DNA of 64,000 nucleotides from Candidatus Hydrogenedentota bacterium (GCA_029552745.1 JAKPDK010000167.1:73973-137972); one strand, 5' to 3'; positions 11,740-53,947 are shown, counted from the stretch's first letter. Notes: generated by a model from the letters alone, not told the origin. Numbers and translations are program-made.

Positions 11740-12185
11740 TGTCTGTGCCCCCATTTAGTCCTCCCGCATGCGGGGGGAAACAACGGTGCGCGCCTCGTTT
11801 GCGACTGTGATTGGCTTAATCCCCCGCACGCGGGGGAAACAACGAGATGTCCCGGATGCCAGGCGATGGCTGAATTAGTCGCCCCCATGGGGGCAAGGGG
11901 AGGGCTGAACCATGGGAGGCGGCGTGGTAGGGGCGAGGCATGCCTCGCCATACGGGGAAGGCGTGGTAGGGCGAGCACGGGGGCTCGCCCCTACAGGGGA
12001 TCGCAGGGAGGGGTTTCACCCTATCTCGTTGGGTTTGATGTCCCCCCGTTGTCATTGCGAGGAGCGAGTCCCCGAGCGACGAAGCAATCCCCTCAACCGC
12101 GTAGCGCAAGAGGGCCTTCTGCCAAGGTTGGGCTATCTCCCAAACCTCGCGGGGATTGCCACGTCGTACCTGCGGCACTCCTCGC
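11740..12185. repeat. composite intergenic repeat block: 2x CCCGCAYGCGGGGGAAACAACG hairpins, 2x GGGCGAGC-loop-GCTCGCCC hairpins, then 48-bp module in forward and inverted orientation
   Basis: Direct comparison with copies at other loci in the window. Confidence 0.7.
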
Positions 12186-12349
12186 AATGACAACCGGGCG
12201 TACAAGCCTAGTCTACGCCCTCGATGCAGTGCCGAAGGTTTGTGAACTTATGCATGTCTCGAAGCTAATCCCGCGCGAGCGGCAACTTGCACGTCTCGGA
12301 TGATTGAATAACACGGTTATTTGTGCTCTGTGCTAAAATGCACCCACGT

Positions 12350-13582
12350 ATGAATAAGGAACTGGTATATCTAGCGAGTGAATATCCCGCCGTTTCGCAT
12401 ACGTTTGTTTTCCGCGAGATACAGGCGCTGCGAAGCTTGGGATTCGTCATTGACACCGCCTCCATCCGGAAGTCCGATCGTCTGGAGGTGATGTCGCAGG
12501 CAGAACGGTCTGAAGCGGAAAACACCTTCTACGTGAAGGCGCAGCCGTGGCTTCTTATTTTGCTTGCCCACGCGCAGCTGTTCTTTCGCGCACCGCATCG
12601 CTATATGGCAATGGCGCTGCATGCCTTGCGCTATCGTTTTCGCGCTCCGCTTCGTTCGGTTGCGGCTTTGGGATATTTTGTGGAAGCCGGCATCTTGGTT
12701 TACTGGATGTTGAAACGGCGAAGGCGACACGTCCACGTCCACTTTGCCAACCCTGCTGCAACCGTCGCGCTGATCGCATCGCGGTCGGGATGGGTCACGT
12801 TCAGTTTAAGTGTCCATGGCCCCGACGTCTTCTATAACGTCGACAAGAATCTATTGGAAGAGAAATTTAAGCACGCCGTATTCGTCCGATGCATCAGTTA
12901 CTATTGCCTTAGCCAAGTCCAACGACTTTTGCCCATTGATCAATGGTCAAAATGCGCCATCGTCCGGTGCGGAATCGACCTCGCTCAATTTCAACCGAGA
13001 CCGTCTCCCGTTGCGAATCCCCCCGAGATCCTTTGCGTCGGCCGTTTGACACCCGCAAAGGGGCAAGCCGTGCTGTTGCATGCCTGCCGCCTATTGCGCG
13101 TTCGGGGCAGGGCGTTTCATCTCACACTAGTCGGAGACGGTCCAGACCGCGTGATGCTGGAATCCCTCGCGCAGGAATTGGAAATAGCCGATGCAGTGCA
13201 TTTTGCTGGCGCGGTGGGTCAACATGAGATTCAGGCTTACTATGACCGGGCTACCGTCTTTGTGCTGCCCAGTTTTGCGGAAGGGTTACCGGTTGTCCTC
13301 ATGGAAGCAATGGCAAAAGGGGTGCCCTGTCTGTCGACACGCATAACCGGCATCCCCGAACTTATTCGCCACGGCGAAAATGGGCTGCTCGTCACTCCGG
13401 CTGATGTGCAAGGTCTTGCGGTTGCCATTGAAGAGCTCCTACGTGAACCATCCACATGCGAACGTTTTTCCAATGAGGGACGCGCCACCGTGGAACGAGA
13501 CTTCGACCTGGGAAAAAATGCAAGCACGATGGCTTCGTTGTTCAACCAGTACCTATTTTCAGACGAGGCAGACCCGCCATGA
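12350..13582 (+). CDS. GT4-family glycosyltransferase (WcaL-like)
   Basis: C-terminal VLPSFAEGLPVVLMEAMAKGVPCLSTRITGIPELI..GENGLLV (GT4 E-x7-E region); N-terminal YLASEYPAVSHTFVFREI typical of WcaL-like; start ambiguous (ATG 12338 or 12350). Confidence 0.8.
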   Translation: MNKELVYLASEYPAVSHTFVFREIQALRSLGFVIDTASIRKSDRLEVMSQAERSEAENTFYVKAQPWLLILLAHAQLFFRAPHRYMAMALHALRYRFRAPLRSVAALGYFVEAGILVYWMLKRRRRHVHVHFANPAATVALIASRSGWVTFSLSVHGPDVFYNVDKNLLEEKFKHAVFVRCISYYCLSQVQRLLPIDQWSKCAIVRCGIDLAQFQPRPSPVANPPEILCVGRLTPAKGQAVLLHACRLLRVRGRAFHLTLVGDGPDRVMLESLAQELEIADAVHFAGAVGQHEIQAYYDRATVFVLPSFAEGLPVVLMEAMAKGVPCLSTRITGIPELIRHGENGLLVTPADVQGLAVAIEELLREPSTCERFSNEGRATVERDFDLGKNASTMASLFNQYLFSDEADPP

Positions 13583-14823
13583 TGATCTTTTTTGACGTCG
13601 CTCTCATCATCCTTGGCGCCTATGTGCTTATCGTCACAATGCATCTTGTCCTTTTGAGCGCCGCCGCATGCCTCCCACGGGCTGCACGCAACAACCCGCA
13701 CCTAGAACCCATCAAGATTGCCGTGGTTGTCCCCGCGCATAACGAAGAAGCGACGATTGCCAAGACCGTTGCAAACATTCTGGCTTGTGATTATCCAAGG
13801 GAACACCGTTCCTTGTTCGTCATCGCAGACAACTGTTCTGACAACACGGCAGCGCGTGCCAAAGAAGCGGGTGCAGTCGTTGTCGTGCGTGTCGATCCCG
13901 ACAACCGCGGCAAAGGCCAAGCCCTCGACTGGTTTCTGCGCTGCCATAGCATGTCTTTGAAGCCATATGACGTTCTGGTACTTCTCGACGCGGATGTTGA
14001 GGTAGCCCCGGACTTTTTGAGGGCAATGCGGGATGCGTTTGCAGACCCCACAGTTCAAGCCGGTCAATCGTATAACGGCGTCGCGAACCCTTCAGAAAAC
14101 TGGCGGACCGCGCTGACTTACGCGGGCTTCGCCGGCGTCAATCACTTGAGACCGTTGGGGCAAATGCGCCTATTCGGCGGGACCATGTTGAAAGGGACGG
14201 GTATGGCGTTCCGTACCGATGTACTCTTGGCACAGGGTTGGCCGCCACGTTCTATCGTGGAGGACATGGAGATGACTTTGACCTTGGCACAAACCGGCGT
14301 CGCCGTGCACTATGTCCCCGAAGCGCGGATGGTTTCTTGTGCAGAAAAAACCGCCTCCCAAGCAAGCTCGCAGCGACGCCGTTGGGAAGGAGGCAGGTTT
14401 CAGCTCATGGCTCATTATGTGCCGCGTCTTCTGTTTTCGAGCGCGCGTAGACCCCGGCTGCTGCTGTTAGGGTTGTTACTGGAATTGTTGACCCCACCGT
14501 TGACCGTGACGGTGTTGACCACCGTACTATGGGGCGTTGTTTTATTAGTCCGGGGATGGTACGAAGCCAGTGGGGTCGCCGCGTTGTGTCTTGCGGGTTT
14601 AGGGGTTTACGTCGCCACTGCCTTGTATCTGGTCCGAGCGCCGCGTCGCGTTTGGGCAGCACTTCTGCAAGCACCCTTCTTTATCGTGTGGAAATTCGTC
14701 GTTTATTGTGGTTTAATCTTGCACCCAGAAAAGAATTGGGTGAGGACGGCGCGCACCTCGTCGCCTCGCGAGCCTCGAGACTCGGAAGAGTCGCCGCCGA
14801 TGAAAGAGGACAACGTTGTATGA
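13579..14823 (+). CDS. GT2-family membrane glycosyltransferase
   Basis: VVVPAHNEE, ADNCSDNT, DxD-type DADVE, C-terminal TM helices; ATGA overlap with upstream GT4. Confidence 0.8.
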   Translation: MMIFFDVALIILGAYVLIVTMHLVLLSAAACLPRAARNNPHLEPIKIAVVVPAHNEEATIAKTVANILACDYPREHRSLFVIADNCSDNTAARAKEAGAVVVVRVDPDNRGKGQALDWFLRCHSMSLKPYDVLVLLDADVEVAPDFLRAMRDAFADPTVQAGQSYNGVANPSENWRTALTYAGFAGVNHLRPLGQMRLFGGTMLKGTGMAFRTDVLLAQGWPPRSIVEDMEMTLTLAQTGVAVHYVPEARMVSCAEKTASQASSQRRRWEGGRFQLMAHYVPRLLFSSARRPRLLLLGLLLELLTPPLTVTVLTTVLWGVVLLVRGWYEASGVAALCLAGLGVYVATALYLVRAPRRVWAALLQAPFFIVWKFVVYCGLILHPEKNWVRTARTSSPREPRDSEESPPMKEDNVV

Positions 14824-16094
14824 ACTTGTTGTGTGGAAGTTCTGCGCTACGCGGAGAGGTCACGATCCCTGGATCGAAGTCGCACACGATCCGTGCGGTT
14901 GCCATCGCTGCTTTGGCGGACGGCGAAAGTCATATAGAACGTCCATTGGAATCCGATGATGCGCGCGCTGCCGTGACGGTTTACGGCGCGCTGGGCGCTG
15001 AAATCGAAACAAGCAACGACGTTTGGCGCGTACAGGGCACGGGCGGCAATCTTCGAATACCCGAGAACGTCCTCGATGTTGGAAATTCCGGCACAACGCT
15101 GCGATTGGCGATGGGTTCATGTGCGCTGCTCCGTGAAGGGCTTGCTGTGCTCACGGGCGATGACCAAATCAGACGTCGTCCCGGCGGTCCCTTGGCACAG
15201 GCGCTCACCAACCTTGGCGCCTGCGTACAATCCACCCGCAACAACGGCTGCGCGCCGTTTGTTGTGCGCGGCAGACTGCAAGGTGGAAAAACAAGCATTG
15301 AAGCGATCACCAGTCAGTATCTGTCAAGTCTGCTTCTTAACACACCTCTTGGCGATAATGACACGGTCATCGAAGTACCCGTGCTGAATGAACAACCGTA
15401 CGTGGAAATGACCCTGGATTGGCTGGCACGGCAAGGCGTTGTAATTGAGAATGAAAACTTCAAGCGTTTCTATGTACGGGGAGGACAACACTACAAGCCC
15501 GTGCGCCGCGCCATACCTGCCGACTTCTCCAGTGCGACCTTCTTCCTTGCTGCTGGTGCCCTACCGGGAAATGACATTCTCGTGCGTGGGCTCGATATGA
15601 ACGATACACAAGGCGACAAAGCGGTTGTGGATTACGTAAAGAGCATGGGCGCCAACGTGCAGATTCAGCCGGAAGGTATCCGCGTAGCCGCCCAGGACCT
15701 CGTCGGACGCGAAATCGATTTGAACGCAACACCCGATGCGTTGCCCATGCTGGCGGTGTTGGCTTGTTTTGCCCGAGGAACCACACGGCTTGTCAACGTG
15801 CCACAGGCACGGCTAAAAGAAACCGACCGTATCGCGGTGATGCGTGAGGAACTGACCAAACTGGGCGGCAAAATCACCGAACTGCCCGACGGGTTGGTAA
15901 TCGAAGAAAGTAGGCTACACAGCGGAACGGTAGAGGGACACGGCGATCACCGGGTGATCATGGCACTCGCGATCGGCGCCACTCAAATCCCCGGAACAAC
16001 CCGCATCCGGGGGTGCGAAGCTATGTCAGTCACGTATCCGACCTTTGTCGAGACGGTGTCACAATTGGGCGGCAACGTACAAGTAGAAAAGTAA
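14820..16094 (+). CDS. aroA: 3-phosphoshikimate 1-carboxyvinyltransferase (EPSP synthase)
   Basis: GEVTIPGSKSHTIRA, LDVGNSGTTLRL, typical 425 aa; ATG overlaps GT2 stop (ATGA at 14820-14823). Confidence 0.9.
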   Translation: MNLLCGSSALRGEVTIPGSKSHTIRAVAIAALADGESHIERPLESDDARAAVTVYGALGAEIETSNDVWRVQGTGGNLRIPENVLDVGNSGTTLRLAMGSCALLREGLAVLTGDDQIRRRPGGPLAQALTNLGACVQSTRNNGCAPFVVRGRLQGGKTSIEAITSQYLSSLLLNTPLGDNDTVIEVPVLNEQPYVEMTLDWLARQGVVIENENFKRFYVRGGQHYKPVRRAIPADFSSATFFLAAGALPGNDILVRGLDMNDTQGDKAVVDYVKSMGANVQIQPEGIRVAAQDLVGREIDLNATPDALPMLAVLACFARGTTRLVNVPQARLKETDRIAVMREELTKLGGKITELPDGLVIEESRLHSGTVEGHGDHRVIMALAIGATQIPGTTRIRGCEAMSVTYPTFVETVSQLGGNVQVEK

Positions 16095-16122
16095 ACGGAC
16101 TCATCAGGAAGGAGGTTCGGTC

Positions 16123-17445: not shown

Positions 17446-17609
17446 GAAGGAGTGGTATTTTTACAACCCGGTAAACGTCTCCCAGCGGCGGCTCAAACCG
17501 TTCTCATGAGGAACCGAAAACGTCCGGAATGCTACGGACATCGGGAGCGTTTTATCAAGATACCCGGCGTGGTAGAATTATCCACAGGCTGAACCAGAAA
17601 GGAAACGAC

Positions 17610-18119: not shown

Positions 18120-18194
18120 GGCAATTCCCCCGGTATTCGGCAATCACAACCCAGACTGACGCCGACCTCGCCGCCACCCAGGACAAAAGCCGCC

Positions 18195-18390
18195 CTCCAC
18201 ATTGTCATTGCGAGGAGTGCCGCCAACCACGACGTCTTCTCGCTCTAGGTCTTCAGGTTGTTGTTGGAGGAGTGCCGTCAGGCACGACCTCTTCTTGCGC
18301 TACGTCCCCAGGTTGTCATTGCGAGGAGCCCCGAAGGGGCGACGTGGCAATCCCCTCGGGAATCCGAAGATGACCCTGCCCTGAATATTG
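18195..18390. repeat. dispersed repeat block (three forward 48-bp modules, one degenerate)
   Basis: TTGTCATTGCGAGGAG...GGCAATCCCCTCGGGAA copies. Confidence 0.7.
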
Positions 18391-18505
18391 ACCCCGAGTG
18401 TGATGACGTGACCTTTTCTTCAAATTCGCTCTTCCCTTCCAGTTGGACGGAACAACAACGACCTGTGCATAATGAGGAGACAAAACAACTAGGAGTTTTT
18501 CACAC

Positions 18506-21360: not shown

Positions 21361-21550
21361 ACATCTCTAAACCTCCCAAATGACATATTAGAGTAGCAAC
21401 AATTAAAACACAGAACACACAAAATAACAAGAATAGGTTGAAGTCTGCCGCGGCTCGAGGAGAAATACGCAAAAACCCTGGAAAAACCGCGTAAAAACAG
21501 GTTTCCAGAAGAGTGGGAAAAGAATCGAAAAAAGAAATTGAAAAGAAAAG

Positions 21551-21585
21551 TTGACAAATAACTTGAAATGCGCTATATATTGTAG
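21551..21585 (+). promoter_or_regulatory. consensus sigma70 promoter TTGACA-17-TATATA
   Basis: TTGACA 21551-21556, 17-nt spacer, TATATA 21574-21579, in AT-rich island; followed by perfect palindrome GCTACAAAATGTAGC at 21601-21615. Confidence 0.5.
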
Positions 21586-21659
21586 AAGAAGATTGGCAAT
21601 GCTACAAAATGTAGCAAAGCCGAGGGAGAAACAGGGAAAAGGAAAAAAGGAGAAAGACC

Positions 21660-21758
21660 ATGATCGCAAAGAAAAAGGCCGCTGCAAAAAAAGCCCCGGC
21701 TAAAAAGAAAGCCGCCGCTAAGAAACCCGCAGCAAAGAAGAAGGCCGCAAAGAAATAA
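21660..21758 (+). CDS. 32-aa Lys/Ala-rich basic peptide MIAKKKAAAKKAPAKKKAAAKKPAAKKKAAKK (histone H1/Hc1-like tail)
   Basis: AAGGAG SD 6 nt before ATG; consensus promoter 75 nt upstream; below ORF-track cutoff. Confidence 0.5.
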   Translation: MIAKKKAAAKKAPAKKKAAAKKPAAKKKAAKK

Positions 21759-22450: not shown

Positions 22451-22739
22451 AGAGGACCCTTTCTTTTTTTACCCAAAGTTACACCATGCGTCGTCCGCAG
22501 CTCGACGCGTAAGCGGCCATTCTATGAAAAAATTGAATCCTATGTCAAGCATTAGTTCGTACCAAATTAACGGTCAGGTACGGACGGTGCCTTCCCCAGC
22601 CCTGCCCGACACCCGTGTATTGGCCACCTCCGTGCATCCAGATGATCCACAGGGCTACATACCAATCCGCAGCATCTGCACAACACAAACCCCTTCAAAA
22701 CCATTCCCACGCCCGTTGCACTTTCCATAATGTCGAGAA

Positions 22740-23160
22740 ATCGCGTAGGGGCGAGGCATGCCTCGCCCTGCGTCGATGTTGGGGAAGGGTCTCTCCCGCC
22801 TATTAGGTTTTTAGGTGGTGTCATTGCGAGGAGTGCCGCTAGGCACGACGTGGCAATCCCCTCGGGAATTCGGGCATGACCTTGCCCGACGTCCTCTTGC
22901 CCTACGTCTTTAGGTTGTCATTGCGAGGAGTGCCGCAGGCACGACGTGGCAATCCCCTCGGGAAATGGATATGACCCGCGACCCTGCTCGTTGTCCTCTT
23001 GCGCTACGTCCCCATGTTGTCATTGCGAGGAGTGCCGTTAGGCACGACGTGGCAATCCCCTCGGGAATGTGGGGATGACCTTACCCGACGTCCTCTTGCG
23101 CTGCGCGGTCGAGGGGATTGCTTCGTCGCTTCGAAGACTGCGCTCCTCGCAATGACAACA
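22740..23160. repeat. tandem array: hairpin element + three direct ~100-bp units (48-bp module + conserved linker) + one inverted module
   Basis: Periodicity ~97-102 bp read directly; linkers share CCTCTTGCGCTACG. Confidence 0.75.
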
Positions 23161-23338
23161 AGGGGCATATGATAAAAAGACTGCCCTTTCCATTTCATGC
23201 TTCGAATTAAAAGGACAGAATACGAAAATTTTTCCCTCTTGTCTCCCTCTTTTTTACCCGTTCTGTTCGTTTTTACCTTTCCTTTTAACTTGCCAAAATA
23301 CGATATACGAATAATTCATGTTTTCCTATAATAGATAC

Positions 23339-26339: not shown

Positions 26340-26680
26340 CGCCGTCATTGCGAGGAGTGCTAAAGGGGGCGACGCCCTCGTGCGTTGTGCCTTCACGTTG
26401 TCATTGCGAGGAGTGCCGCAGGCACGACGTGGCAAACCCCTCGGGTAATTGGGGAGAGCAGTGCCTTTGCCGTAGGCCATCTTGCGCTACGCGGTTGAGG
26501 GGATTGCTTCGTCGCGTCGGGGACGCCGCTCCTCGCAATGACAACCCGGGGGATACGGGGGTAGAGGAGAAGAAGGGCGAGCACGGGGGCTCGCCCCTAC
26601 AGACGGGCGGGGAATTTGCGGAAGAAGTAGTTTTGGGCAAGCACGGGGCAGGGCGAGCACGAGGCTCGCCCCTACCGGAG
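26340..26680. repeat. dispersed repeat block: 48-bp modules (two forward, one inverted) plus two GGGCGAGC..GCTCGCCCCTAC hairpins
   Basis: Direct comparison. Confidence 0.75.
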
Positions 26681-26754
26681 AGACGGGGGACACCTGCGCC
26701 ACTCTTCCAATTGACAAAAGGGGGCACTGCGCCAAAATCGGGGCAGCGAGCCCG

Positions 26755-27606
26755 CTATTTTCCTCGGGCTGCGAGGGCGGCTTCGAGAAGGTCGACGTCT
26801 TCTTGAATCATATGGGGGTTGTCTTTGGTGAAGATACCAACACACACGGCATCGCCCGGACGGTACGCCTCGGCAACGTATTCAAAGGCTTCGTGAGGTC
26901 TATTTCTTCCAGCGGCAAGGACTTTGTAATGGATCGCCGGTGCGGGAAGCTGCTGGATAAGGGCGCACATAGCGTCGCGATCTTCGGGACCATAGCACTC
27001 GGGAATGTTATAGTCCCGGTCGGGACGTTTGGTCCGGTCACTGGGGTTGTAGTAGCTTGCCATGAAAAAATCGAGTTCCAGATTGTCCGCAGCCCATTTC
27101 AAGGTATCGGGGCGGTGCCCCGCCACGCCAGCTGCCATACCGGCGTCTTTGATCGCGCGGATAGCGCCGAAGATTTCGCGAGTTTCCCGCCGAGCTACGC
27201 GGTGGTCCATTTCTCCGCCATGGATGAAGCAGGCACGGGCCTTACCCCGGATGGCGTTGTTGACGCCGTGCATCAGGGTGCCGACGCCAGGACATTGTTG
27301 TGCAATCCAAAGGAGGTTACCGCCTTCGTTCCAATGCTCTCGCAGGGCACGAATGATAAAATTGTCAGCGCGGCCTACGTGTGCCGTGACGCCCGCCTGT
27401 TCCGCTAGCCGATAACACTCTTTGACCCGTTCCATCGTGTACCAATCCAACATTTCGGCGTCCCGCTGTATGGTGTGATGCGAATAGCCGCCAAACGGAT
27501 TGGCGCCCAATATGAACCGGCTGACAACGACTTGCCCCAACCGCACCAGTTTCGGCCGATAGTGGTGTGCCGACGGCGCTTTGACGGTGCCGGCTTGTTG
27601 CGTCAT
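26755..27606 (-). CDS. hypothetical protein (283 aa), last gene of LarA-family operon
   Basis: Start MTQQAGT overlaps upstream stop (TAATG); no recognisable motif. Confidence 0.55.
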   Translation of the reverse strand: MTQQAGTVKAPSAHHYRPKLVRLGQVVVSRFILGANPFGGYSHHTIQRDAEMLDWYTMERVKECYRLAEQAGVTAHVGRADNFIIRALREHWNEGGNLLWIAQQCPGVGTLMHGVNNAIRGKARACFIHGGEMDHRVARRETREIFGAIRAIKDAGMAAGVAGHRPDTLKWAADNLELDFFMASYYNPSDRTKRPDRDYNIPECYGPEDRDAMCALIQQLPAPAIHYKVLAAGRNRPHEAFEYVAEAYRPGDAVCVGIFTKDNPHMIQEDVDLLEAALAARGK

Positions 27607-33132: not shown

Positions 33133-35250
33133 ATGTCCACAAGAAATGAGATCGGACTGCAAACATCGAGCCACCCGCTGCTAGTTAACTGGAGGCTCTG
33201 CGGTATCTGCCTGTTCATCTGCATCGGATTGTGGAGCACCGCGGGGTCGGCAAAGAGCACGGTGTCGGATTCGGAGGCAGTTCTCCGTCTGATTTGGCAG
33301 GCAGGCAACGCAGCGACGGATGAAGAACGGCTGAATTTGCTTCTCCAACTGGCAAAACGCACGGACTTATCGCCCGCGCTCAAGGCCGATGTTTCCCGAC
33401 TTGTCCACGAGATCGAAGAATGGATTCATAATCCCGACCTACCGTATTTTTGGCGCAAGATCCGGCTGTCTGGAACATACGACTTTGGTATCGCCGAAAA
33501 ATCGCCCCTGTTCCCGATCGTACAGTTTTACCATGCGCGGATGATCGTTTGGGTCGTGTTGGAGTCTGGCGACATCTGGGGCAACCCCAACCGGCGGCGG
33601 ACCATGTTGGATAATGCGCGCGCCCTGTTTGAAGATGCGGCAGCCGCTTTCCCGGAAAACCCGGTTATCCGCATGTATCTGGGTGAACCGATCCCGCCCC
33701 GGCGCCACTATCCTGCCGTACCGGGGGCACCGGAATGGGCTGTTTATCAGCGCGAGGCGCTCGAACGATTAACAGACATCATCACGTGGTGGATCGATCA
33801 CCGGATGCAGGAGAGCGGGGCGTTTGGCGGCGGATGGGGGGACGACTGTGAGATGTGGCGATGGTGGACTCCGGTGCTGATCGGTTTCCATGACCCTAAG
33901 ATTACCGCCGCACAAGCCCGGTTCTCGCGCGCGATGTTCGAGCAAAAACACATGAAAGACGGATACACAAGCCACCTATACGACGTCGAGCACACGGCGG
34001 AAGACTCCGCGGATACCCTGACCCCGATGATGCATCTCGAGCCCGACAATCCGGAATGGAGCGCCCGCGTTCTTCGACTCGCGGACCTCATGGAGACGCT
34101 TTGGACCGGTGTGAATGAGCGCGGCATGCTTCAGTTTAAGAGCACCTATTTTAACGCGACCCGCGTGGACGACTCGCCCCGCCGTGCTTGCGATACGCCG
34201 ATGCATGTACGTGCCATGCAGCCTACTTTGTTGTATTGGCAACGTACCGGCGATGCACGACTGACTCGACTGTTCCGTGCATGGATGGATACGTGGGTAG
34301 ATGCCGCGGCACGCGCAGAACGAGGCAAGCCCGCCGGCGTTCTGCCCAGCGCCATCCACTGGCCGGATGGCCGCATCGGCGGCCTTGGTGAGAAGTGGTG
34401 GGACCCCGAAAACCACACGGAGGACCCCCTGTATGTATGGCCAAGCGCATTGAATCAGATGGCATACGCCCTGCTCCTAACCCATCATATGACAGGGGAG
34501 GACAAATATCTCGAGCCGATTCGCGTTCTGGCAGCGCTCCGCCTGCGCTATCTCACCGAAAATCCCCCCGGTCCTCTGGAAGAGGGTTCCGAGATGTGGT
34601 GTGGCTCGAAGCTAGGTCGTATCACCGGAGTAATCGCCAAGTATCGCTACCTCACCGGTGACAGAACGTTCGACGATCTGCTCCGGGGCGAAGCTAGTCC
34701 CTATGCTGCTTTTTGTTACTACGGAGAAGGCGGCGCCCTCTCGTTGGCGTTGCGAAACACGGCGGAGGCGTTGCGACTGAACTTCGAAGGTTACACGAGC
34801 GAAGTGCGGTACACAGACCGCGTGTTGCGGTTTCCCTCGTTGTTCGGTCAAAACGGCATGTACCCGGAGCCCGTAGTGTCCATCCGAGTACCGGACCCTG
34901 CCCTCTTGTACTCTACCGTCACGGGAGATATGGGAGATGCGCTCTATTTTCCCCTTAATGCGGTGCGTTGGTTGACGCCGCCCCGTGATATCGCCGCGCT
35001 GGTGACAGATTGCAGCAATGAGACCTTCGAGGCGCGGTTGTTTCACTTCGGTACAACCCCACGCCAAGTGGACGCGGAACTATATCTCTTAAAGCCGGGT
35101 TCCTATGAGTTGACCCTGCGCGAGTCGGCTTCTCCGACTACCGTTTTGACATCATCCATGTTCGAGGTATCAGGCCTCCGTTGTCGCGTATCGTTTGAGT
35201 TGCCGCCCCGTCGCCTCTGTGTCATGCGAGTCAGCCGTGTAAGCCACTGA
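33133..35250 (+). CDS. secreted hypothetical protein (705 aa), possibly alpha/alpha-toroid polysaccharide lyase/hydrolase-like
   Basis: Signal peptide; Trp-rich helical repeats; no firm family assignment. Confidence 0.55.
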   Translation: MSTRNEIGLQTSSHPLLVNWRLCGICLFICIGLWSTAGSAKSTVSDSEAVLRLIWQAGNAATDEERLNLLLQLAKRTDLSPALKADVSRLVHEIEEWIHNPDLPYFWRKIRLSGTYDFGIAEKSPLFPIVQFYHARMIVWVVLESGDIWGNPNRRRTMLDNARALFEDAAAAFPENPVIRMYLGEPIPPRRHYPAVPGAPEWAVYQREALERLTDIITWWIDHRMQESGAFGGGWGDDCEMWRWWTPVLIGFHDPKITAAQARFSRAMFEQKHMKDGYTSHLYDVEHTAEDSADTLTPMMHLEPDNPEWSARVLRLADLMETLWTGVNERGMLQFKSTYFNATRVDDSPRRACDTPMHVRAMQPTLLYWQRTGDARLTRLFRAWMDTWVDAAARAERGKPAGVLPSAIHWPDGRIGGLGEKWWDPENHTEDPLYVWPSALNQMAYALLLTHHMTGEDKYLEPIRVLAALRLRYLTENPPGPLEEGSEMWCGSKLGRITGVIAKYRYLTGDRTFDDLLRGEASPYAAFCYYGEGGALSLALRNTAEALRLNFEGYTSEVRYTDRVLRFPSLFGQNGMYPEPVVSIRVPDPALLYSTVTGDMGDALYFPLNAVRWLTPPRDIAALVTDCSNETFEARLFHFGTTPRQVDAELYLLKPGSYELTLRESASPTTVLTSSMFEVSGLRCRVSFELPPRRLCVMRVSRVSH

Positions 35251-35264
35251 TTGTTTTGTGCGCC

Positions 35265-35530
35265 TTGCCATTGTTCCCCTCTTGTCGTCGCGAGGAGCGA
35301 GTCTTCGAAGCGACGAAGCAATCCCCCTCAACCGCATAGCGCAAGAAGGCCTAGAGCAGGGGCAGGCCAAGACCTCTCCTAATTGCCAAGGGGATTGCCG
35401 CCTCGCCCCTTTGGGGTTCTTCGCAATGACAATCAGGAAGTGTAGGGCAGGGGTCAGGGTCATCTCCTTATTTCCCAGGGGATTGCCACGTCGCCCCTTC
35501 GGGGCTCCTCGCAATGACAACCGTGGAGGC
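35265..35530. repeat. dispersed repeat block (one forward, two inverted 48-bp modules)
   Basis: Direct comparison. Confidence 0.75.
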
Positions 35531-35629
35531 GTAGAACAAGAGGGCGTGCGGACGGGTCGGATGGTCAAGTTGGAAAGGGTTTGCGAGGGTAAGATGTGGT
35601 AATCTATTGGAACCTCATTAGCTTGGTTT

Positions 35630-36340
35630 GTGATAAAGCTCACTATGAATGTTGATTTTCGCAAAGAAACTCCTGAATCGTTTCGCCGGACACTCGTACA
35701 AATTCAGCTTGCCGGGGTCTTGTGTCTCACGTTTTGGGCGCTTGCCCTATTCCTTTTAGGCACGTGGGAGCCGGACCCCTATGCTGAAGCGTGGCGGCTG
35801 ATCGTTGGGCAACTATTGGTTGGCAGGGCATATAGCGTGTCCGCTGGGCTGAAACATGGGTTCCCGAAGTTTTTTCTTTTGGCCCAATGCTCTTTACAGG
35901 ATATGGTTATTCTTCTCGTCCTCTATCCCATCATTGTGGGTGGCTATCGACGAATTGTTGAGTACCGCTTTTTAGGGGACGCGCTGGCAAATATCCGTGC
36001 CACGGCGGAACGACACAAGGAGTCCGTCGCGAAATATGGCGTTGTCGGGCTTGTGGCGTTTGTGTTTTTCCCTTTGTGGAGTACGGGGGCACTTGCCGGC
36101 GGCGTTATTGGGTACTTGTTAGGCATGCGCACACGGGATGTTTTCTCTGCGGTCATTGTAGGGAACTTTTTATCCGTGGCATGTTGGCTATGGCTCTTTG
36201 ATCAGATGCGGCGCTTTTCCGAGGTTTTCGGCGACATCATTCCCGGGTTGATTCTCTTTACTGCCCTCGGTGTTGCTGCGTTTATGCGTTTCTATCGTTT
36301 TCGCAGTGGATCTGACCGGAAAAACGGCCCATTCCCTTAA
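35630..36340 (+). CDS. integral membrane protein, hypothetical (possibly small multidrug-export-related COG2426-like)
   Basis: 5-6 predicted TM helices. Confidence 0.5.
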   Translation: MIKLTMNVDFRKETPESFRRTLVQIQLAGVLCLTFWALALFLLGTWEPDPYAEAWRLIVGQLLVGRAYSVSAGLKHGFPKFFLLAQCSLQDMVILLVLYPIIVGGYRRIVEYRFLGDALANIRATAERHKESVAKYGVVGLVAFVFFPLWSTGALAGGVIGYLLGMRTRDVFSAVIVGNFLSVACWLWLFDQMRRFSEVFGDIIPGLILFTALGVAAFMRFYRFRSGSDRKNGPFP

Positions 36341-38774: not shown

Positions 38775-38945
38775 TCGCATATCCCCCCTCTTGTCATTGC
38801 GAGGAGCGGAGTCTTCGAAGCGACGAATCAATCCCCTCAACCGCGCAGCGCAAGAGAACGCAGGACAAAGATGGCGGCCTCTCCCTGAACATCCGAGGGG
38901 ATTGCCACGTCGCGCCTCACGGCACTCCTCGCAATGACAGCGCGG
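38775..38945. repeat. dispersed repeat: forward + inverted 48-bp modules (MITE-like pair)
   Basis: Direct comparison. Confidence 0.75.
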
Positions 38946-40320: not shown

Positions 40321-40332
40321 AAGGGGTAACTA

Positions 40333-42794: not shown

Positions 42795-43780
42795 TTCGTC
42801 ATAGCGCTCCCACCCTCACCGAGGAAGAAATCCAAGCATGTGCCGATGTCATGCGATCAGGTCACATCGCCCAAGGCGTCCAGGTGGAAGCATTCGAACA
42901 GGAATGCGCCGCATACCTAGGCCGACGTTTCGGGATCGCCGTTAACAGCGGCACAAATGCCTTAATCCTGGCACTGGAAATACTCGAAATATCCCGGGGC
43001 TCTCGGGTGGCTATGCCGTCGTATGTTTGTGCAGCGTTGGCTACCGCCGTGTTGCAATGTGGCGCTGTGCCCGTCCTCTGCGACTGCCGGCAACAAGATC
43101 ACAACATGGATCCACATCGTGTCCCTCCCGACATACCGGTGATCGCCGTGCACCTGTTCGGCGCGCCAGCACCCCTTCCCCAAAATCCCTTGCTCATCGA
43201 AGACATTGCACAAGCCATCGGGGCACCTGTCGGGAAAACGGGTAAGGTCAGCATCGTTTCGTTTTATGCAACAAAACTCCTCACAACGGGCGAAGGAGGT
43301 ATGCTGTTTACGGACGATGACGCCCTTGCCCAAGCCGCCCGCGATCTGCGCGATTACGATAACCGCGAGCATTTTCGCCTGCGACATAATTTCAAAATGA
43401 CGGACCTTCAGGCAGCCATCGGGCGCGCGCAACTTAGAAAACTGGACGTGTTCATAAAGCGCAGACGGGAAATCGCCCAACGATTTACCGAAGCCTTCGC
43501 GGAACTTCCCCTGGAACTGCCCCACGCTGAAAACCACGTCTATGCGCGGTATGTTGTCGGCCTCGACCAACGAGACGAACTCCAACAGCACCTAAGCCGC
43601 TTCAAAATTGAAGCCAAACGCCCCGTCTATCGGCCGCTCCACCATTACCACCTCGACCCGCACGCTGAGTGTCCCAATGCCGAACGCGCCCACCGCCGTT
43701 TGCTCTCTCTACCCATATACCCGAGCCTCAAAGACGAGGAGGTCGAGCAAATTATCCAAGCGGTTCGCAGCTTTTTCTGA
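42791..43780 (+). CDS. DegT/DnrJ/EryC1/StrS-family PLP-dependent sugar aminotransferase
   Basis: ATGA overlap with wbqC; GTNALILAL, FYATKLLTTGEGGML (PLP lysine), 329 aa. Confidence 0.85.
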   Translation: MIRHSAPTLTEEEIQACADVMRSGHIAQGVQVEAFEQECAAYLGRRFGIAVNSGTNALILALEILEISRGSRVAMPSYVCAALATAVLQCGAVPVLCDCRQQDHNMDPHRVPPDIPVIAVHLFGAPAPLPQNPLLIEDIAQAIGAPVGKTGKVSIVSFYATKLLTTGEGGMLFTDDDALAQAARDLRDYDNREHFRLRHNFKMTDLQAAIGRAQLRKLDVFIKRRREIAQRFTEAFAELPLELPHAENHVYARYVVGLDQRDELQQHLSRFKIEAKRPVYRPLHHYHLDPHAECPNAERAHRRLLSLPIYPSLKDEEVEQIIQAVRSFF

Positions 43781-43839
43781 CCTCCCCATAGCATTTAAGA
43801 AATTAGGATAGATGCATTTCGCGCCACCCGTTTTTTGAA

Positions 43840-44215
43840 GTGCCCCGGCTGTCATCGCGAGAAGCCCCGAAGGGCGACGCCTTCTTGCCCTACACCCCCA
43901 GCTGTCATTGCGAAGAGCCCCAAAGGAGCGACGCTTCCTTACTCTGCCCCCGGCTGTCATTGCGAGGAGTGCCGTGAGGCACGACGTGGCAATCCCCTCG
44001 GGAATTCGGAGAAGACTTTGACCTTGCCCTGCGCCCTCTTGCGCTAAGCGGGTGAGGGGATTGCTTCGTCGCCTCGAAGACTCCGCTCCTCGCAATGACA
44101 ACGACGGGGACGAAGAGGGCGAGCAGGGGGCTCGCCCCTACAAAGAACGCCGGGGACTGATTCCTCGCATAGGGGACGCCGCTCCTCGCAATGACAAGGG
44201 GGCGCAAGGGGCGGG
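43840..44215. repeat. dispersed repeat block (three forward modules, two inverted, one GGGCGAGC hairpin)
   Basis: Direct comparison. Confidence 0.75.
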
Positions 44216-44390
44216 AAAAGGGTTGTCCTTACTAAGGACGAGATAAAACCCATCCCTCCAAAACGTGGAACCCCACGGCGAGACATCCACATTACAAGGC
44301 GCGCGCTATATCAGAATTCCGATGTTCTTGATGTCAGGTGCCGCAAGGTCGTACGAAAATGATAGGCATCAAAACGAACTGTTTTGGCCT

Positions 44391-47478: not shown

Positions 47479-47574
47479 AGCAAATTCCCCTGTTGTGTTT
47501 TCTGTTCATGAACTATAGTCCTATGTTTTCTCGCGTGTCAATCATTGGAAACGTAATTCCCAAAAAGAGCGGTT

Positions 47575-47665
47575 ACGGTCAGAGGGGGGATTCCAATCCT
47601 TCCCCTGCGTTGCCTTGCGCTGCGCCCCATGTTGTTATTGCGAGACGTGCCTCGCCCCTACAAAT
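47575..47665. repeat. partial/degenerate repeat copy (GTTGTTATTGCGAG + CGTGCCTCGCCCCTACAAA hairpin half)
   Basis: Direct comparison. Confidence 0.4.
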
Positions 47666-47800
47666 AGAAACGTGGACTTCTCGGAAACGGGTTGTCCTGG
47701 GTAAGTAGATGGTAGGCAAGCCGCTGGCGCGCATTTGATTGGCACAGGGAAGGTCTTGATATGATTTCGCTTCGTTCCGGTTTTTAAGATCCCAACACAT

Positions 47801-49618: not shown

Positions 49619-49628
49619 CGTCGCCAGG

Positions 49629-51923
49629 TTAAGGTTTGAACCGGAGCGTGCCCTTTGGCGGAACCACGCGGAACTCCACCGCGTCCACTTCGCCGCGACC
49701 GCTCATGCACGTGAGCCGGTGCTCTCCTTCTTCCAGAGCCAAGAAAACCGGCGCGGTGGCCGTTGACGTTCCCACGTATCGATCGTCGACATACCAATGC
49801 ACGGGGGTTTCAGCATCAGCGGAAGATTCGAGACGAATGCGATCTCCCTGCTTTTCTCCGGTTAACACAAATTCAGCACGGTCTGCCGGAACAAGGATTC
49901 GGGCTCCGGAGACTCGCTTCACAGTGGACGATGACGGGCTTTCGTTCGGCGTCACAGGCGACTGAACATTTGCCAAGTCCCATCCTTTCGCAATACCCGG
50001 GAAACGCTCCACCGTGTGCATAAGGTTGTCCGTCCCTTGCACGGGATAGTGTACATCGCAAACGCGGTGCAAGAATTGGGAGCGGGGAAGGCTGACTTGT
50101 CTCTTGTGTTCACACCACGCCGACGCGGGCAAGCCGGACGTGGCACATACTTCTACCGAAACCAGATCATCACCGACTTCAGGCCATGCGGCGTCTGTTT
50201 TGGCTGGCAGCGCACGGAAAAGGCGTCCCGCGAGAGGCAATGCCGCTCGAGCACCCACCAACCATGTCGACGGCTTGCCATCGTTATTTCCCATCCATAC
50301 TCCCACCACATAGTGACGATTAAAGATGACCGTCCATGCATCCCGTTGTCCCGTGGAAGTCCCTGTTTTCCAACAGACGCGTGAGGTACTCCCACCGGCA
50401 GGGACCGCACTCGAGTCCAGCTCCTCCGGCAAGGTCTGTTCCAGCATCTGATACAGTTGCAAGCACACCCCACGCGAAAGTTTTCGTTGCGGCGTTGGCG
50501 CACGAACCGTAGCGATAAGCCGTAACGGCCGCCATTCCCCAAGATTCGCCACCATCGTGTAGGCTGTCGCCAGTTCTTCCAGCGTCACCTCACAGTCGCC
50601 CAGCGCAAATCCAAGCCCATAAAAATCCGCGCTGCGTTTTAGGGAACGAAACCCCATGTCGCGAAGAAATGTGTAAACCGTGTCGACACCGAGACGTTCC
50701 AAAACAAGTACGGCAGGTACATTTAACGAGCGCCGCAACGCCTCCGAAGCCGAAACGAGCCCCCGATATTTCCCATCGGCGTTTTCCGGAGCGTACAACC
50801 CATAATCTAAGGTATTGTCAAGCAGCATCTCACTACTGTACAAAACGTTCCTCTCCATGGCTGCTGCATACAAGAATGGTTTTAGGGTCGACCCGGGAGA
50901 CCGAGGCGCCCGAACTACGTCTACCTGACCGCCGCCCGGAGTCTGAAAGAAATCCGCCGACCCTACCCATGCCAAGATTTCGGCGCTTTCGGCATCGACG
51001 ACGATCGCTGCGGCATTGCCAATTTTTCCTGCATAGCCGCGAATGGTCTCTCGCAGCATGCGTTCCGCCAGGGCTTGGACGTCGGCATCCAGAGTTGTCT
51101 GCATTGTTTTACCGCCTGCTACAAACGGTTTAAGCCGTGCCGCGACATGTCGAGCATAGCCCGGGAATTCATGACGACGTACGTCGAGTGGTGTCGCAAC
51201 GGCGGCGCGGTATTCCTCTTCGTCGATGTAGCCCTCTTCTCGCATTCGCTGAAGAACATAGTCCCGACGTATCTTGGCTCGTTCCGGGTGGGCGAAAGGC
51301 ATATACGACGAAGGTGCCTTCGGTAATCCCGCTAACAAGGCGGATTCCGGCAACGTGAGTTCTCTTGCCGTTTTGCCAAAGTATCGCCTTGCCGCTGCCT
51401 CGCACCCCACAAGGTTGAGGCCGTAAGGTGCCGTGTTCAAATACGTCTGAAGAATTGTGGCTTTGTCCACATGTCGCTCGAGACGCACTGCTTGTACCGC
51501 TTGGAGAATTTTTTTCCAAAAGCCTCTTTCCGACATCAACCTTGGTTTGACGACCTGCATGGTAATCGTGGACGCCCCCGACACGACCCTACCGGAACGG
51601 AGATTCTGCCACGCCGCACGGACAATGGCGATGGGATCTATTCCCCAGTGGTCATAAAAGCGATGGTCCTCGGTTGCTAGGGTAGCATGAATAAGATACG
51701 GACTTATCTGGGATAAATCGCGTTCAAAACACCATTGATCCGCTGCATTGAGAAACGGATGAAGCAAAACACCGCGGCGATCATGAATTTCCCCCGAGCG
51801 TGGAACGGTCAGGTAAGACATAGCGTCCATAGGTAGCCAAGAAAACAGCCCCCACGCCCCCGCAAGTAGCAGAAGTCCTGTGAAAAGGATAACGCCGAGA
51901 TGTTTCCACGAGATGTGCCTCAT
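49629..51923 (-). CDS. pbpC: penicillin-binding protein 1C (GT51 transglycosylase + transpeptidase + PbpC C-terminal domain)
   Basis: GT51 motifs TLATEDHRFYDHWGID, GASTITMQVVK; transpeptidase SxxK GSTLKPF; 764 aa. Confidence 0.85.
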   Translation of the reverse strand: MRHISWKHLGVILFTGLLLLAGAWGLFSWLPMDAMSYLTVPRSGEIHDRRGVLLHPFLNAADQWCFERDLSQISPYLIHATLATEDHRFYDHWGIDPIAIVRAAWQNLRSGRVVSGASTITMQVVKPRLMSERGFWKKILQAVQAVRLERHVDKATILQTYLNTAPYGLNLVGCEAAARRYFGKTARELTLPESALLAGLPKAPSSYMPFAHPERAKIRRDYVLQRMREEGYIDEEEYRAAVATPLDVRRHEFPGYARHVAARLKPFVAGGKTMQTTLDADVQALAERMLRETIRGYAGKIGNAAAIVVDAESAEILAWVGSADFFQTPGGGQVDVVRAPRSPGSTLKPFLYAAAMERNVLYSSEMLLDNTLDYGLYAPENADGKYRGLVSASEALRRSLNVPAVLVLERLGVDTVYTFLRDMGFRSLKRSADFYGLGFALGDCEVTLEELATAYTMVANLGEWRPLRLIATVRAPTPQRKLSRGVCLQLYQMLEQTLPEELDSSAVPAGGSTSRVCWKTGTSTGQRDAWTVIFNRHYVVGVWMGNNDGKPSTWLVGARAALPLAGRLFRALPAKTDAAWPEVGDDLVSVEVCATSGLPASAWCEHKRQVSLPRSQFLHRVCDVHYPVQGTDNLMHTVERFPGIAKGWDLANVQSPVTPNESPSSSTVKRVSGARILVPADRAEFVLTGEKQGDRIRLESSADAETPVHWYVDDRYVGTSTATAPVFLALEEGEHRLTCMSGRGEVDAVEFRVVPPKGTLRFKP

Positions 51924-52005
51924 GGCAATTTATACCAAGCCACCGTTTGTCTGTGGCGCTTCGCAATCAAGAATCCATATCCCGAAACCCATGTACTTCG
52001 GGCCG

Positions 52006-52842
52006 TCACCCGATATCGCTTCTCGTGTCCCGACTGCGCCGCGGGATGGGCACATACTCCACGGTCGGCACGCGACGCATCGGCTGAGGGTACAACGACA
52101 ACAAATACATAATACTTTCCGGGATATCTGTGCGTACCGGTAGTCCCAATTCCTTTGCCTCATCGCAAGTAATAGGATGATCGTGCGTCCACGTGCCTTG
52201 AGAAAGGAGCGTGGCGATTTGCTGCGCTCGGTCAGCGTTCATCTTATCCCGCAAAAGTTCCACAACACTCCGATGAACCTGTTCCATGGCTTTGCGGGCA
52301 AGATCGGCAAGAATGAGCGTTTGATCGTCGATCTCCGCAACCGGCTTCGTATCAAGCACTTTTAGAATGGACGCCGCAGGGTATTGCCCCAGTTGAGGAT
52401 CGACGGGTCCCAACACGGCGTGAGGCGCCATAACAATTTCGTCTGCGGCAAGGGCAATCAGGGTGCCACCCGACATCGCATAATGCGGAACGAAAACCGT
52501 CACTTTCCCGGGATGGGCATGGATCGCACGGGCAATCTGCAAAGCGGCTAACACCAATCCACCAGGAGTGTGCAACACAATGTCCAGCGGCACTTCGGGG
52601 TCGGTCATGTGGATCGCCCGAATCACTTCTTCGGAATCGTCAATATCAATGTACCGAAATATCGGAAACCCCAAGAGGTTCATAGTTTCTTGGCGATGAA
52701 TCAGAAGAATTACGCGGGAATTACGTTCCCGTTCGATACGACTCAATATGCGCTGTCGGGAACTCTCCAAGAGTTTTTGGCGTACCACCGGTTGGATGGC
52801 GGTCAACATAAAGAACAACCAAAGCAGATCGAGAAAACCCAT
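52006..52842 (-). CDS. ClpP-fold serine protease, SDH (serine dehydrogenase proteinase)/SppA-like family, membrane anchored
   Basis: N-terminal TM; LHTPGG...YAMSGGTLIALAADEIVM core. Confidence 0.65.
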   Translation of the reverse strand: MGFLDLLWLFFMLTAIQPVVRQKLLESSRQRILSRIERERNSRVILLIHRQETMNLLGFPIFRYIDIDDSEEVIRAIHMTDPEVPLDIVLHTPGGLVLAALQIARAIHAHPGKVTVFVPHYAMSGGTLIALAADEIVMAPHAVLGPVDPQLGQYPAASILKVLDTKPVAEIDDQTLILADLARKAMEQVHRSVVELLRDKMNADRAQQIATLLSQGTWTHDHPITCDEAKELGLPVRTDIPESIMYLLSLYPQPMRRVPTVEYVPIPRRSRDTRSDIG

Positions 52843-52871
52843 AGATTTGTCTCCTGCGTGCTAGCGGGCAA

Positions 52872-53618
52872 TCAACGATATCCAGCCCAAGGCCAAGCCC
52901 CTTCAACACCATATTCGTCAATGAAAAACGGCCGTCTTGCCGGCTGCCGAATCAGAAACAACCGATGCAAAAACACCCCAGCTAAAAACCCGCCCACGTG
53001 CGCCCACCAGGCAATACCGCCACATTCCTGTGCCGTCAACAAACACAACGTACCACTGAAAAACTGCGAGAAAAACCACAACAACAGAAAGAAAAACGCT
53101 GGAATCTCTATAAAGAACGGCAGGAAAAATATCGGAATAAGGCAGATAATGCGCGCACGAGGATAGAGAAAGAAATACGCCCCCAACACGCCCGCAATGG
53201 CGCCCGACGCGCCAATTGCAGGAACCGTTGACCCCGGATTCGTCACCACATGGGCAATTCCAGCAATTACCCCACACGTCAAGTAAAAGAGAAGAAAACG
53301 CGCGGGACCCATACGGTCTTCCACATTGTCCCCAAAAATCCACAACGTCCAGAGGTTACTGATGATATGCAACCAACCTCCATGCAGAAACGTCATCGTC
53401 AAAAAAGACGCCAACCCAATTCCCGGAAAACCCACGTGAGCCGCCCAGCCCGGCTGCGTGTACCGTCGCGGCACCACCCCCAGCAAATACACCACACGTG
53501 CCAGCTGCTGATCGGAAAGCCTTAATTGCAGCACAAAAACAACAATGGTCAGCCCCATGATCGACCACATCGCCAACGGCGGCGTTCGGCTGGGCACATT
53601 ATCTCGAATGGGCAACAT
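52872..53618 (-). CDS. rhomboid-family intramembrane serine protease
   Basis: 6-TM; GASGAIAGVLGAYF (catalytic Ser), His in AHVGGFLAG. Confidence 0.85.
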   Translation of the reverse strand: MLPIRDNVPSRTPPLAMWSIMGLTIVVFVLQLRLSDQQLARVVYLLGVVPRRYTQPGWAAHVGFPGIGLASFLTMTFLHGGWLHIISNLWTLWIFGDNVEDRMGPARFLLFYLTCGVIAGIAHVVTNPGSTVPAIGASGAIAGVLGAYFFLYPRARIICLIPIFFLPFFIEIPAFFFLLLWFFSQFFSGTLCLLTAQECGGIAWWAHVGGFLAGVFLHRLFLIRQPARRPFFIDEYGVEGAWPWAGYR

Positions 53619-53887
53619 AGTGGTTCACCCGTTACGCATGCTCTGTTTCCAGTTCATTGTCATTATAGCCCCGCATGTCAGAATTATCCACACGTGTATT
53701 GGCATAATGGACGGTTGCGCAACTCATCGTTGATTGCACACCCGAGCGGGCATCCATATCAACCCTTGTGGATACGACGATGCCACCGCCCCTAAAAATT
53801 GCGTGACGTAAAAGTACCCTTTCCTTTGCGTTTGGTGTTCAACATCGGCATTGCCCCGGGGTGTCCCAAAGAACGAAACCCGTTGCG

Positions 53888-53947
53888 CTACACCACCCAC
53901 CTTGTCATTGCGAGGAGTGCCGTGAGGCACGACGTGGCAATCCCCGC
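53888..53947. repeat. single forward 48-bp repeat module
   Basis: TTGTCATTGCGAGGAGTGCCGTGAGGCACGACGTGGCAATCCCC. Confidence 0.7.

Follow-up and report, generated by a model that had tools for sequence, protein, structure and literature searches.

The described systems closest to the repeat analyzed here are families of short intergenic hairpins, among them the REPIN/RAYT systems of repetitive extragenic palindromic (REP) sequences and the bacterial interspersed mosaic elements (BIMEs), reportedly set out by Bertels and Rainey in 2011 and by Nunvar and colleagues in 2010. The CGTC-tagged REPs, which include dRS3 of Neisseria and RPE-4 and RPE-6 of Rickettsia, are described in the text of the survey that covers them as carrying at one end only a tag that reads CGTC, often TGTC and also CCTC, with A-T as the first two stem positions and a short unpaired tail; they occur in several phyla, head-to-head dimers dominate, heterodimers are common and, in that description, no dedicated transposase is known (Di Nocera, De Gregorio and Rocco, 2013; PMC3733652). 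The same text gives the families CGTC-1 to CGTC-4 continuous stems of 8-9 bp and loops of 4-5 nt (PMC3733652). The Neisseria NTS hairpin (CGTCATTCCCGCGMAVGCGGGAATCYRG) is bound and cut, as single-stranded DNA (ssDNA) only, by SsnA, a 94-aa GIY-YIG protein whose cutting is governed by the three bases 5' of the palindrome and whose binding is governed by the C just 3' of it (Chenal et al., 2025; PMC11893778). Ssn homologues across phyla, most of them in Pseudomonadati, are flanked by related hairpins (Ssn-related motifs, SRMs) in a layout like that of an insertion sequence (IS) (PMC11893778). Here we compare with these systems a dispersed hairpin repeat, hereafter the module, from a 64-kb stretch of DNA (the window) that matches, at 100% identity, JGI, ENA and NCBI contigs of the Candidatus Hydrogenedentes bacterium metagenome-assembled genome GCA_035359255.1. 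The module belongs to a known class, of which it is a longer form that had apparently not been catalogued, and does not represent a new kind of element; in our judgment the repeats are probably a long, presumably non-autonomous variant of the pan-bacterial class of CGTC-tagged REPs and SRMs that serves as ssDNA hairpin substrates.

The module recurs far beyond chance. Its 16-nt left arm, TTGTCATTGCGAGGAG, has 23 matches in the window at no more than two mismatches, as against 0.04 expected from dinucleotide-preserving shuffles, and a regular expression for the whole module finds 19 full copies in addition to truncated ones. The copies form 10 blocks, which make up nearly all of the window's intergenic gaps above 300 bp, and every copy lies between long open reading frames (ORFs); of the 19 modules that a covariance model (CM) detects, 10 are in (+) and 9 in (-) orientation. 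The initial annotation, which had proposed a dispersed intergenic repeat family occurring in both orientations, is thus borne out, and each of the loci it listed holds copies except that near 47575, where only a degenerate hybrid fragment is found at ~47625-47660. The genes that neighbor the blocks are divergent in five cases, tandem in three and convergent in two, and some blocks stand upstream of promoters.

Each module is 44-47 nt long and reads TGTC-ATTGC-GA-GGAG-(variable hairpin)-CGAC-GWR-GCAAT-CCCC, with a stem of 5 bp, a 2x3 internal loop, four further positions of which two are G·A, and an apical stem of 3-6 bp. The 3' tail is C(C/T)(C/A) in general and CCCC in the window. Each of the 19 window modules opens with the TGTC tag; the GTC, the base of the stem and the 3' C persist in 17-19 of the 19, and the apical stems are still complementary despite sequence change. 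Two subtypes are distinguished by their apical hairpin and 3' arm: subtype A, TGTCATTGCGAGGAG-(TGCC-N3-4-GGCA or CCCC-GAA-GGGG)-CGACGTGGCAATCCCC followed by TCGGGAAT, has the 3' arm CGACGTG, and subtype B, ...GAGGAG-(CG(G)AGTC-TTC/CCC-GA(A/G)G)-CGACGAAGCAATCCCC followed by TCAACCGCG, has CGACGAA. A single A module folds alone at -9.2 kcal/mol.

The arrangement of a forward module, a linker and an inverted module, noted at the outset, is found at six inverted doublets (Table 1). Every doublet joins an A module through a conserved linker of ~50 nt (...CCTCTTGCGCTACGCGGT) to an inverted B module, three in each orientation, and the gap between the arms is 58-66 nt in the five doublets that the regular expression detects, the divergent (+) arm at 35281 having been missed by it. 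All five opposite-orientation window pairs that were scored are convergent with their tags outward, as are 98 of 128 adjacent module pairs in other genomes; the linker has no occurrence in any other fetched locus. The doublet 23008-23168 folds into one long DNA hairpin (-54.4 kcal/mol, z = -9.35). Repeat finding with TRF also delimits a tandem array at 22819-23106 with a period of 102 nt and arrays of truncated units at 18202-18328 and 43843-43969 with periods of 53-55 nt.

Outside the window, we scanned the pattern GTCATTGCGAGGAG-N9-16-CGACGNNGCAATC against one genome per GTDB species. Among the matches listed, loci with the exact module pattern come from more than 15 phyla and include Chloroflexota, Firmicutes, Patescibacteria, Bacteroidota, Ignavibacteriota, Omnitrophota, Actinomycetota, Gemmatimonadota and Hydrogenedentota, as well as alpha-, gamma- and delta-Proteobacteria, a Tisiphia endosymbiont and others. 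The arms of the module are nearly identical across phyla, unlike REP sequences in general, which tend to be lineage-specific; with the exact module present in so many of them, it is not a species-specific REP. Searches of Rfam gave no match at gathering thresholds across the window and, at E<=10 on 22700-23200, one chance-level match of 16 nt only, and a full-text literature search with module sequence strings returned unrelated primer matches only.

The conserved structure that the initial annotation had suggested checking by covariance model is present. We aligned 76 foreign copies, with no window sequence among them, and the model built from this alignment (CM R1) recovers all 19 window copies with E values from 1.5e-11 to 7e-4. 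Invariant in the 76 copies are the GTC 5' of the stem, the AT...AT of the stem base and the C 3' of the stem, columns 7-45 being A-U and columns 8-44 U-A in 76/76. Under the proposed structure 83.6% of cells are paired, as against 68.4% in shuffles; slid registers pair 21.7-31.5%, and a slide of -3 pairs 53.9%. The covariation score is 0.276 against 0.059 in shuffles and is reached by none of 500 shuffles. Because the search pattern fixed the arms, only the inner helix constitutes unbiased structural evidence, and the covariation there is strong: the apical pair 18-33 is GC in 27 copies, CG in 21, UA in 14 and AU in 5, and the G·A positions become Watson-Crick pairs in 15-16 of the 76. Across ~200 foreign copies compared, the apical hairpin varies freely with compensatory changes, and GGAG...CGAC is swapped in some for GCCG/CGGC, GGCC/GGCC, GGGG/CCCC, GGCG/CGCC or GACG/CGTC. 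Since these replacements are Watson-Crick sets, the segment must be helical, with tandem G·A/A·G pairs in its common form.

In other genomes the module flanks small genes for GIY-YIG proteins. When ORFs of at least 110 aa around 120 module loci were clustered, no family reached beyond 11 loci, and the largest clusters had no annotation; GIY-YIG genes of ~95 aa were missed by this clustering because of its cut-off, and a motif search of small ORFs then found them. In an Oscillospiraceae locus (L008) a GIY-YIG ORF at 6533-6826 (Pfam PF01541, 1.4e-16) lies between modules at 6444(+) and 6882(-), and in a Falkowbacteria locus (L015) a GIY-YIG gene at 2547-3022 lies between modules at 2475(+) and 3039(-). 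The L008 protein gave a weak match to a UPF0213 protein, 1zg2, in a PDB sequence search and no match in an NCBIfam scan. With an alignment of L008/L015-type GIY-YIG proteins we fetched 80 Ssn-homologue loci from metagenomes, the family assignment resting on Pfam PF01541, on protein size and on homologues flanked by the NTS. An ATTGC-type module lies within 300 bp of the gene in 35 of the 80 loci and on both sides in 21, where a rough estimate of the chance expectation is ~0.1, and a generic GTC-RY-NNN...N'N'N'-RY-C hairpin is present at 67. The stem types at these loci are ATTGC, ATTCT, ATTCC, ATGCT and others, with the ATTGC/G·A module the commonest around the homologues sampled, and the Neisseria NTS with one mismatch flanks the genes at L162 and L203. 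The usual locus reads module(+), 13-70 nt, ssn, 4-100 nt, module(-), with the orientation seen in the window doublets. Stem type is common to nearest-neighbor Ssn proteins in 35/58 against 0.195 expected, a concordance to which shared locus ancestry could contribute.

Some further features of these loci stand apart. Within L015, a ~150-bp insertion at 2729-2870 with its own inverted ends (GAGATGGTTACAAAACTATTT...) splits the module-flanked GIY-YIG gene and looks like an unrelated miniature inverted-repeat transposable element (MITE) within the ssn gene. Many Ssn-homologue proteins are located on contigs of 0.5-1 kb. Among viral contigs, 90 stretches carry the module and none carries ssn; in several IMG/VR contigs (L233, at 2705-3892, L256, L259, L278 and L279) a 283-aa ORF of unknown function lies between two doublets spaced ~1.09 kb apart, a repeat-gene-repeat layout that resembles the configuration discussed for Neisseria, with no ssn in those contigs.

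The module resembles both described hairpin classes. Its TGTC tag, A-T first two stem pairs, short tail and convergent dimers, often heterodimers, all fit the CGTC-tagged REPs as the survey's text describes them, from which it differs in its tail, CCCC and not CCA, and in the conserved ~50-nt linker of the window doublet; it may nonetheless overlap with CGTC-2 to CGTC-4 of that survey (PMC3733652). With the SRM and NTS hairpins it shares the one-sided GTC, a stem opening A-T/T-A, an invariant C after the stem, high copy number and intergenic position and, for the module type in other genomes, inverted copies flanking small single-domain GIY-YIG genes; its invariant GTC and 3' C are the published SsnA cleavage and binding determinants. 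It differs in length, the window modules being 44-47 nt against 28 nt for the NTS, and in its purine internal loop, tandem G·A pairs and extra apical hairpin, and Hydrogenedentota are not named in the main text of the Ssn study (PMC11893778).

These likenesses suggest how the repeats may work. A module in single-stranded form folds into an irregular hairpin with an unpaired TGTC, a 5-bp base helix ATTGC/GCAAT and a purine loop of GA opposite GWR, above which stand a 4-bp segment of G-C, G·A, A·G and G-C and the variable apical hairpin, with one invariant C 3' of the stem. An Ssn-family (cd10448) GIY-YIG ssDNA nuclease encoded elsewhere in the genome would bind this hairpin and nick beside the GTC tag whenever the DNA is single-stranded, as in replication, uptake of incoming DNA or repair, and through this activity, together with recombination among them, units would arise, be duplicated and be lost. 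The doublets look like gene-less ssn units because the same inverted layout flanks ssn genes elsewhere, and they would stand to the module-ssn-inverted module unit, as its non-autonomous counterparts, in the relation that REPINs have to RAYT genes; in either system the doublets presumably depend on a domesticated nuclease gene, present in single copy and flanked by the same repeats, as its non-autonomous partners. The organism presumably has a cognate Ssn that acts on and spreads these copies, and the spread itself may proceed by Ssn-dependent ssDNA transposition or by recombination.

Comparison of strains and species reveals turnover by whole units. Contigs carrying identical proteins were all 100% identical to the window and thus gave no strain difference. 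In a close strain (L211/L212), whose RecD2 is 97% identical and whose DNA is ~97% identical to the window near BrkB, block 1 holds one module unit against two in the window, the 84-nt unit 2155-2238 being missing, and in addition a further B module and a GC hairpin, both absent from the window, all between flanks that are ~97% identical. The more distant Hydrogenedentes loci L124, L126 and L213 have no module in 47 kb. A species at 76% RecD2 identity keeps the BrkB-RecD2 synteny, the promoter and a small ORF and has none in 12.7 kb, nor do two further loci from related species hold any; the species that shares a 705-aa protein at 84% identity is not syntenic and offers no orthologous site. As a near-identical strain differs by whole units and relatives lack modules, the family has expanded in this lineage and is still changing by units. 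Together with the one-sided tag, the inverted pairs and the mosaic blocks, these differences favor the REP/BIME-type, probably non-autonomous element that was among the first suggestions for the family.

Several observations weigh against our assignment to the CGTC-tagged REP and SRM class. The stem of 5 bp, a loop, 4 bp and then 3-6 bp departs from the continuous 8-9 bp stems with 4-5 nt loops in the survey's descriptions, and Ssn biochemistry is known from the Neisseria and Wolbachia enzymes on much shorter hairpins only. The ~81 kb searched, made up of the 64-kb window with 9.4 kb past one end and 7.4 kb past the other, contain no ssn or GIY-YIG gene. The published SRM string, HGTCWYN(0-2)YYVSBRHN(0-5)WNVSBRGN(0-2)RNCYNB, has no match in the window and matches 3 of the 80 Ssn loci; this string is an operational search tool, not a biological definition. 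The L211/L212 difference includes a tandem copy-number change that recombination alone could yield, and the copies are only ~81-93% identical to one another, so that no very recent burst is evident.

A bolder extension holds that the doublets are non-autonomous transposons moved in trans by Ssn through excision and insertion of hairpin-bounded ssDNA, and that the near-identity of the arms in more than 15 phyla goes back to a single ancient partnership of nuclease and hairpin that was exchanged horizontally. We consider this unlikely as it stands; if true, Ssn-driven transposition of doublets would be a chemistry not yet demonstrated in bacteria.

Some of the same observations bear on a rival explanation, in which the repeats are decaying relics of an ancient CGTC-REP/SRM expansion that now have no enzyme and vary through slippage and homologous recombination. 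The 81-93% identity, short of near-identity, would fit decay, as would the many truncated or hybrid copies, the single resolved strain difference being a tandem unit gain or loss, the lack of an ssn gene within the ~81 kb searched, and the proposal, in the text of the REP survey, that CGTC families may be heading for extinction (PMC3733652). The retention of the GTC, stem base and 3' C in nearly all copies and the complementary apical stems point instead to continuing constraint, and L211 holds a different module set at the same site, beyond a change in copy number; we regard decay without an enzyme as quite improbable.

Another rival has the modules moved as REPIN-type elements by a RAYT, the IS200/IS605-like Y1 HUH transposase that serves classical GTAG REPs. 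This would account for the doublet architecture, which matches that of REPINs in its inverted hairpins folding into one long hairpin and that of BIMEs in its mosaic intergenic clusters. The blocks moreover hold a second hairpin family, reported from the start and confirmed here, (GTA)GGGGCG-stem-loop-stem-CGCCCC(TAC), with the pattern GTAGGGGCG...CGCCCCTAC, whose GTAG often stands on one side only; this is the signature of GTAG-tagged (RAYT-type) REPs. Since these family-2 hairpins always lie in blocks with TGTC modules, two REP super-families are combined there into BIME-like mosaics. We saw no RAYT gene, the tag of the main module is TGTC and not GTAG, and the enzyme linked to it is of GIY-YIG and not HUH Y1 type: modules flank small GIY-YIG genes instead, no cluster of ORFs of at least 110 aa around the 120 module loci exceeds 11 loci, the largest being unannotated, and, according to the survey's text, CGTC repeats were not seen to flank RAYT genes (PMC3733652). 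A RAYT-driven origin of the modules is accordingly very improbable.

That the hairpin is read as RNA, be it a cis-regulatory element, an mRNA-stability element or a small RNA, was also considered in the initial annotation and we find it highly unlikely. The hairpin covaries, protein-binding RNAs commonly contain tandem G·A pairs, and many REPs are transcribed, as the text of Di Nocera et al. suggests (PMC3733652). The searches of Rfam, at gathering thresholds for the window and at E<=10 for one block, gave no family; copies occur on both strands with mixed gene orientation, some of them upstream of promoters; no terminator-like site overlaps any module; SsnA is inactive on RNA (PMC11893778); and one arm of each doublet would be non-equivalent as RNA because the reverse complement turns G·A into C·T. 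A terminator role for the modules was rejected on the same zero overlap.

Least credible of all is the conventional MITE, a deletion derivative of a DDE-transposase IS with ~48-bp terminal inverted repeats moved as double-stranded DNA by cut-and-paste, since this first description, for all that only a short linker parts the inverted ends and that the complete element can fold into one long hairpin, is too simple for repeats of which each is an autonomous, internally covarying hairpin conserved across phyla, of which single modules and same-orientation tandem arrays are common, whose doublet ends show no apparent target-site duplication in the window sequence, and around which, among ORFs of at least 110 aa at the 120 module loci, no transposase gene or parent IS was seen.

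If the repeats are, as we think probable, long members of the CGTC-tagged REP and SRM class, their value lies in extending the SRM definition. The long ATTGC/G·A module escapes the published string though it is the commonest type around the sampled Ssn homologues, and current surveys may for this reason miss members of the class in Chloroflexota, Firmicutes, bacteria of the candidate phyla radiation and Hydrogenedentota. With doublets that are dense and structurally distinct and a strain turnover that can be measured, the lineage is also a usable test case for the spread of CGTC-type repeats. Furthermore, Ssn enzymes are under development for cutting ssDNA at specific sites, and another class of substrate would add to the specificities available.

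Table 1. Module copies and family-2 hairpins in the window, with positions counted from its first nucleotide.
Feature	Position	Strand	Evidence
Degenerate A-type module (P1 ACTAC/..AATT)	2176-2219	-	CM R1 E=7e-4; within 84-nt tandem unit 2155-2238
A-type module directly upstream of -35 box, BrkB-operon promoter	2261-2305	-	CM R1 E=1.4e-7
Module B (P2 CGAG-TCCC-CGAG), left arm of doublet 12048-12194	12048-12092	+	Regular expression, CM
Module A, right arm of doublet 12048-12194	12151-12194	-	Regular expression, CM
Two truncated 55-nt units: module 5' half joined to linker end, 3' P1 arm deleted	18202-18311	+	TRF period 55 x2.3
Module A (P2 CCCC-GAA-GGGG)	18312-18355	+	CM R1 58.5 bits, E=1.5e-11
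Three tandem A modules (22817-22861, 22914-22957, 23016-23060), conserved linker after each	22817-23060	+	CM; TRF period 102 nt
Module B closing doublet 23016-23159	23113-23159	-	CM
Truncated module unit (CCGTCATTGCGAGGAG...CGACGCC...)	26342-26396	+	Left-arm match
Module A, left arm of doublet 26397-26545	26397-26440	+	CM
Module B (P2 GCGTC-CCC-GACGC), right arm of doublet 26397-26545	26499-26545	-	CM
Module B with diverged P1 (GTCGTCGC), left arm of doublet 35281-35433	35281-35326	+	CM E=2e-4
Module A, right arm of doublet 35281-35433	35390-35433	-	CM
Extra A module, tandem 88-nt unit adjoining 35390-35433	35478-35521	-	Repeat comparison, CM
Module B, left arm of doublet 38790-38941	38790-38836	+	CM
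Module A, right arm of doublet 38790-38941	38897-38941	-	CM
Two truncated 53-nt units	43843-43952	+	TRF period 53 x2.4
Module A, left arm of doublet 43953-44102	43953-43997	+	CM
Module B, right arm of doublet 43953-44102	44056-44102	-	CM
Degenerate B-like module	44152-44198	-	CM E=0.56; exact left arm
Degenerate hybrid: module start TTGTTATTGCGAG joined to 3' half of family-2 hairpin	47625-47660	+	Sequence
Solitary A module	53901-53945	+	CM 57.6 bits
Family-2 hairpins GTAGGGGCGAGGCATGCCTCGCC and GTAGGGCGAGCACGGGGGCTCGCCCCTAC, in block of doublet 12048-12194	11927-11952, 11966-11994		Pattern search
Other family-2 copies	2119-2146, 22745-22771, 26572-26600, 26648-26675, 44114-44141		Pattern search

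In addition to the family-2 copies in Table 1, a degenerate one is present at ~47640. The third hairpin family of the initial annotation exists, with the correction that its copy at 11763 has one extra G, the pattern given there matching 11823 only. Three small GC hairpins stand ~57-60 nt apart at 11760-11905 (TCCTCCCGCATGCGGGGGGAAACAACG, TCCCCCGCACGCGGGGGAAACAACG and a degenerate TCGCCCCCATGGGGGCAAGG), and in their spacing and the end of the repeat they look like a very small CRISPR-like remnant; no cas gene is among the annotated window genes, with ~12.3-23.1 kb annotated only in part. The contig of the close strain stops after the first unit of these hairpins.

A near-consensus promoter (TTGACA at 2334-2339, 17 nt, TACAAT at 2357-2362) lies upstream of BrkB-RecD2, with a leader of ~120 nt for which Rfam gave no match. 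The leader is followed by a 39-aa tryptophan-rich small ORF at 2486-2605 (MKSEWYWQPGEWWWWIAGIF...) that is conserved in the species at 76% RecD2 identity, where the counterpart of 2334-2605, at L213 7990-8270, and a similar promoter, TTGACA/TAGAAT, are visible. Between a 798-aa ORF and a DPBB-domain gene, 21518-21749 is an A-rich low-complexity stretch with overlapping tandem periods of 13-33 nt (AAAAAGGCCCCGGCA-like) that is unrelated to the module family.

The repeat blocks also have consequences for assembly and annotation. Short-read (Logan) contigs end inside them, at window positions 26516, 35319, ~2086 and ~11803 (ends of L003 and L211), and because contigs of both the organism and a close strain do so, the repeats evidently break assemblies. 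ORFs of 100-190 aa cross the blocks at 11734-12303 (189 aa), 26348-26806, 35170-35664 and 43709-44207; these are almost certainly spurious and may surface in gene calls as hypothetical proteins in which the same peptide strings recur. Annotators should therefore mask the blocks, which both break short-read assemblies and generate spurious ORFs.

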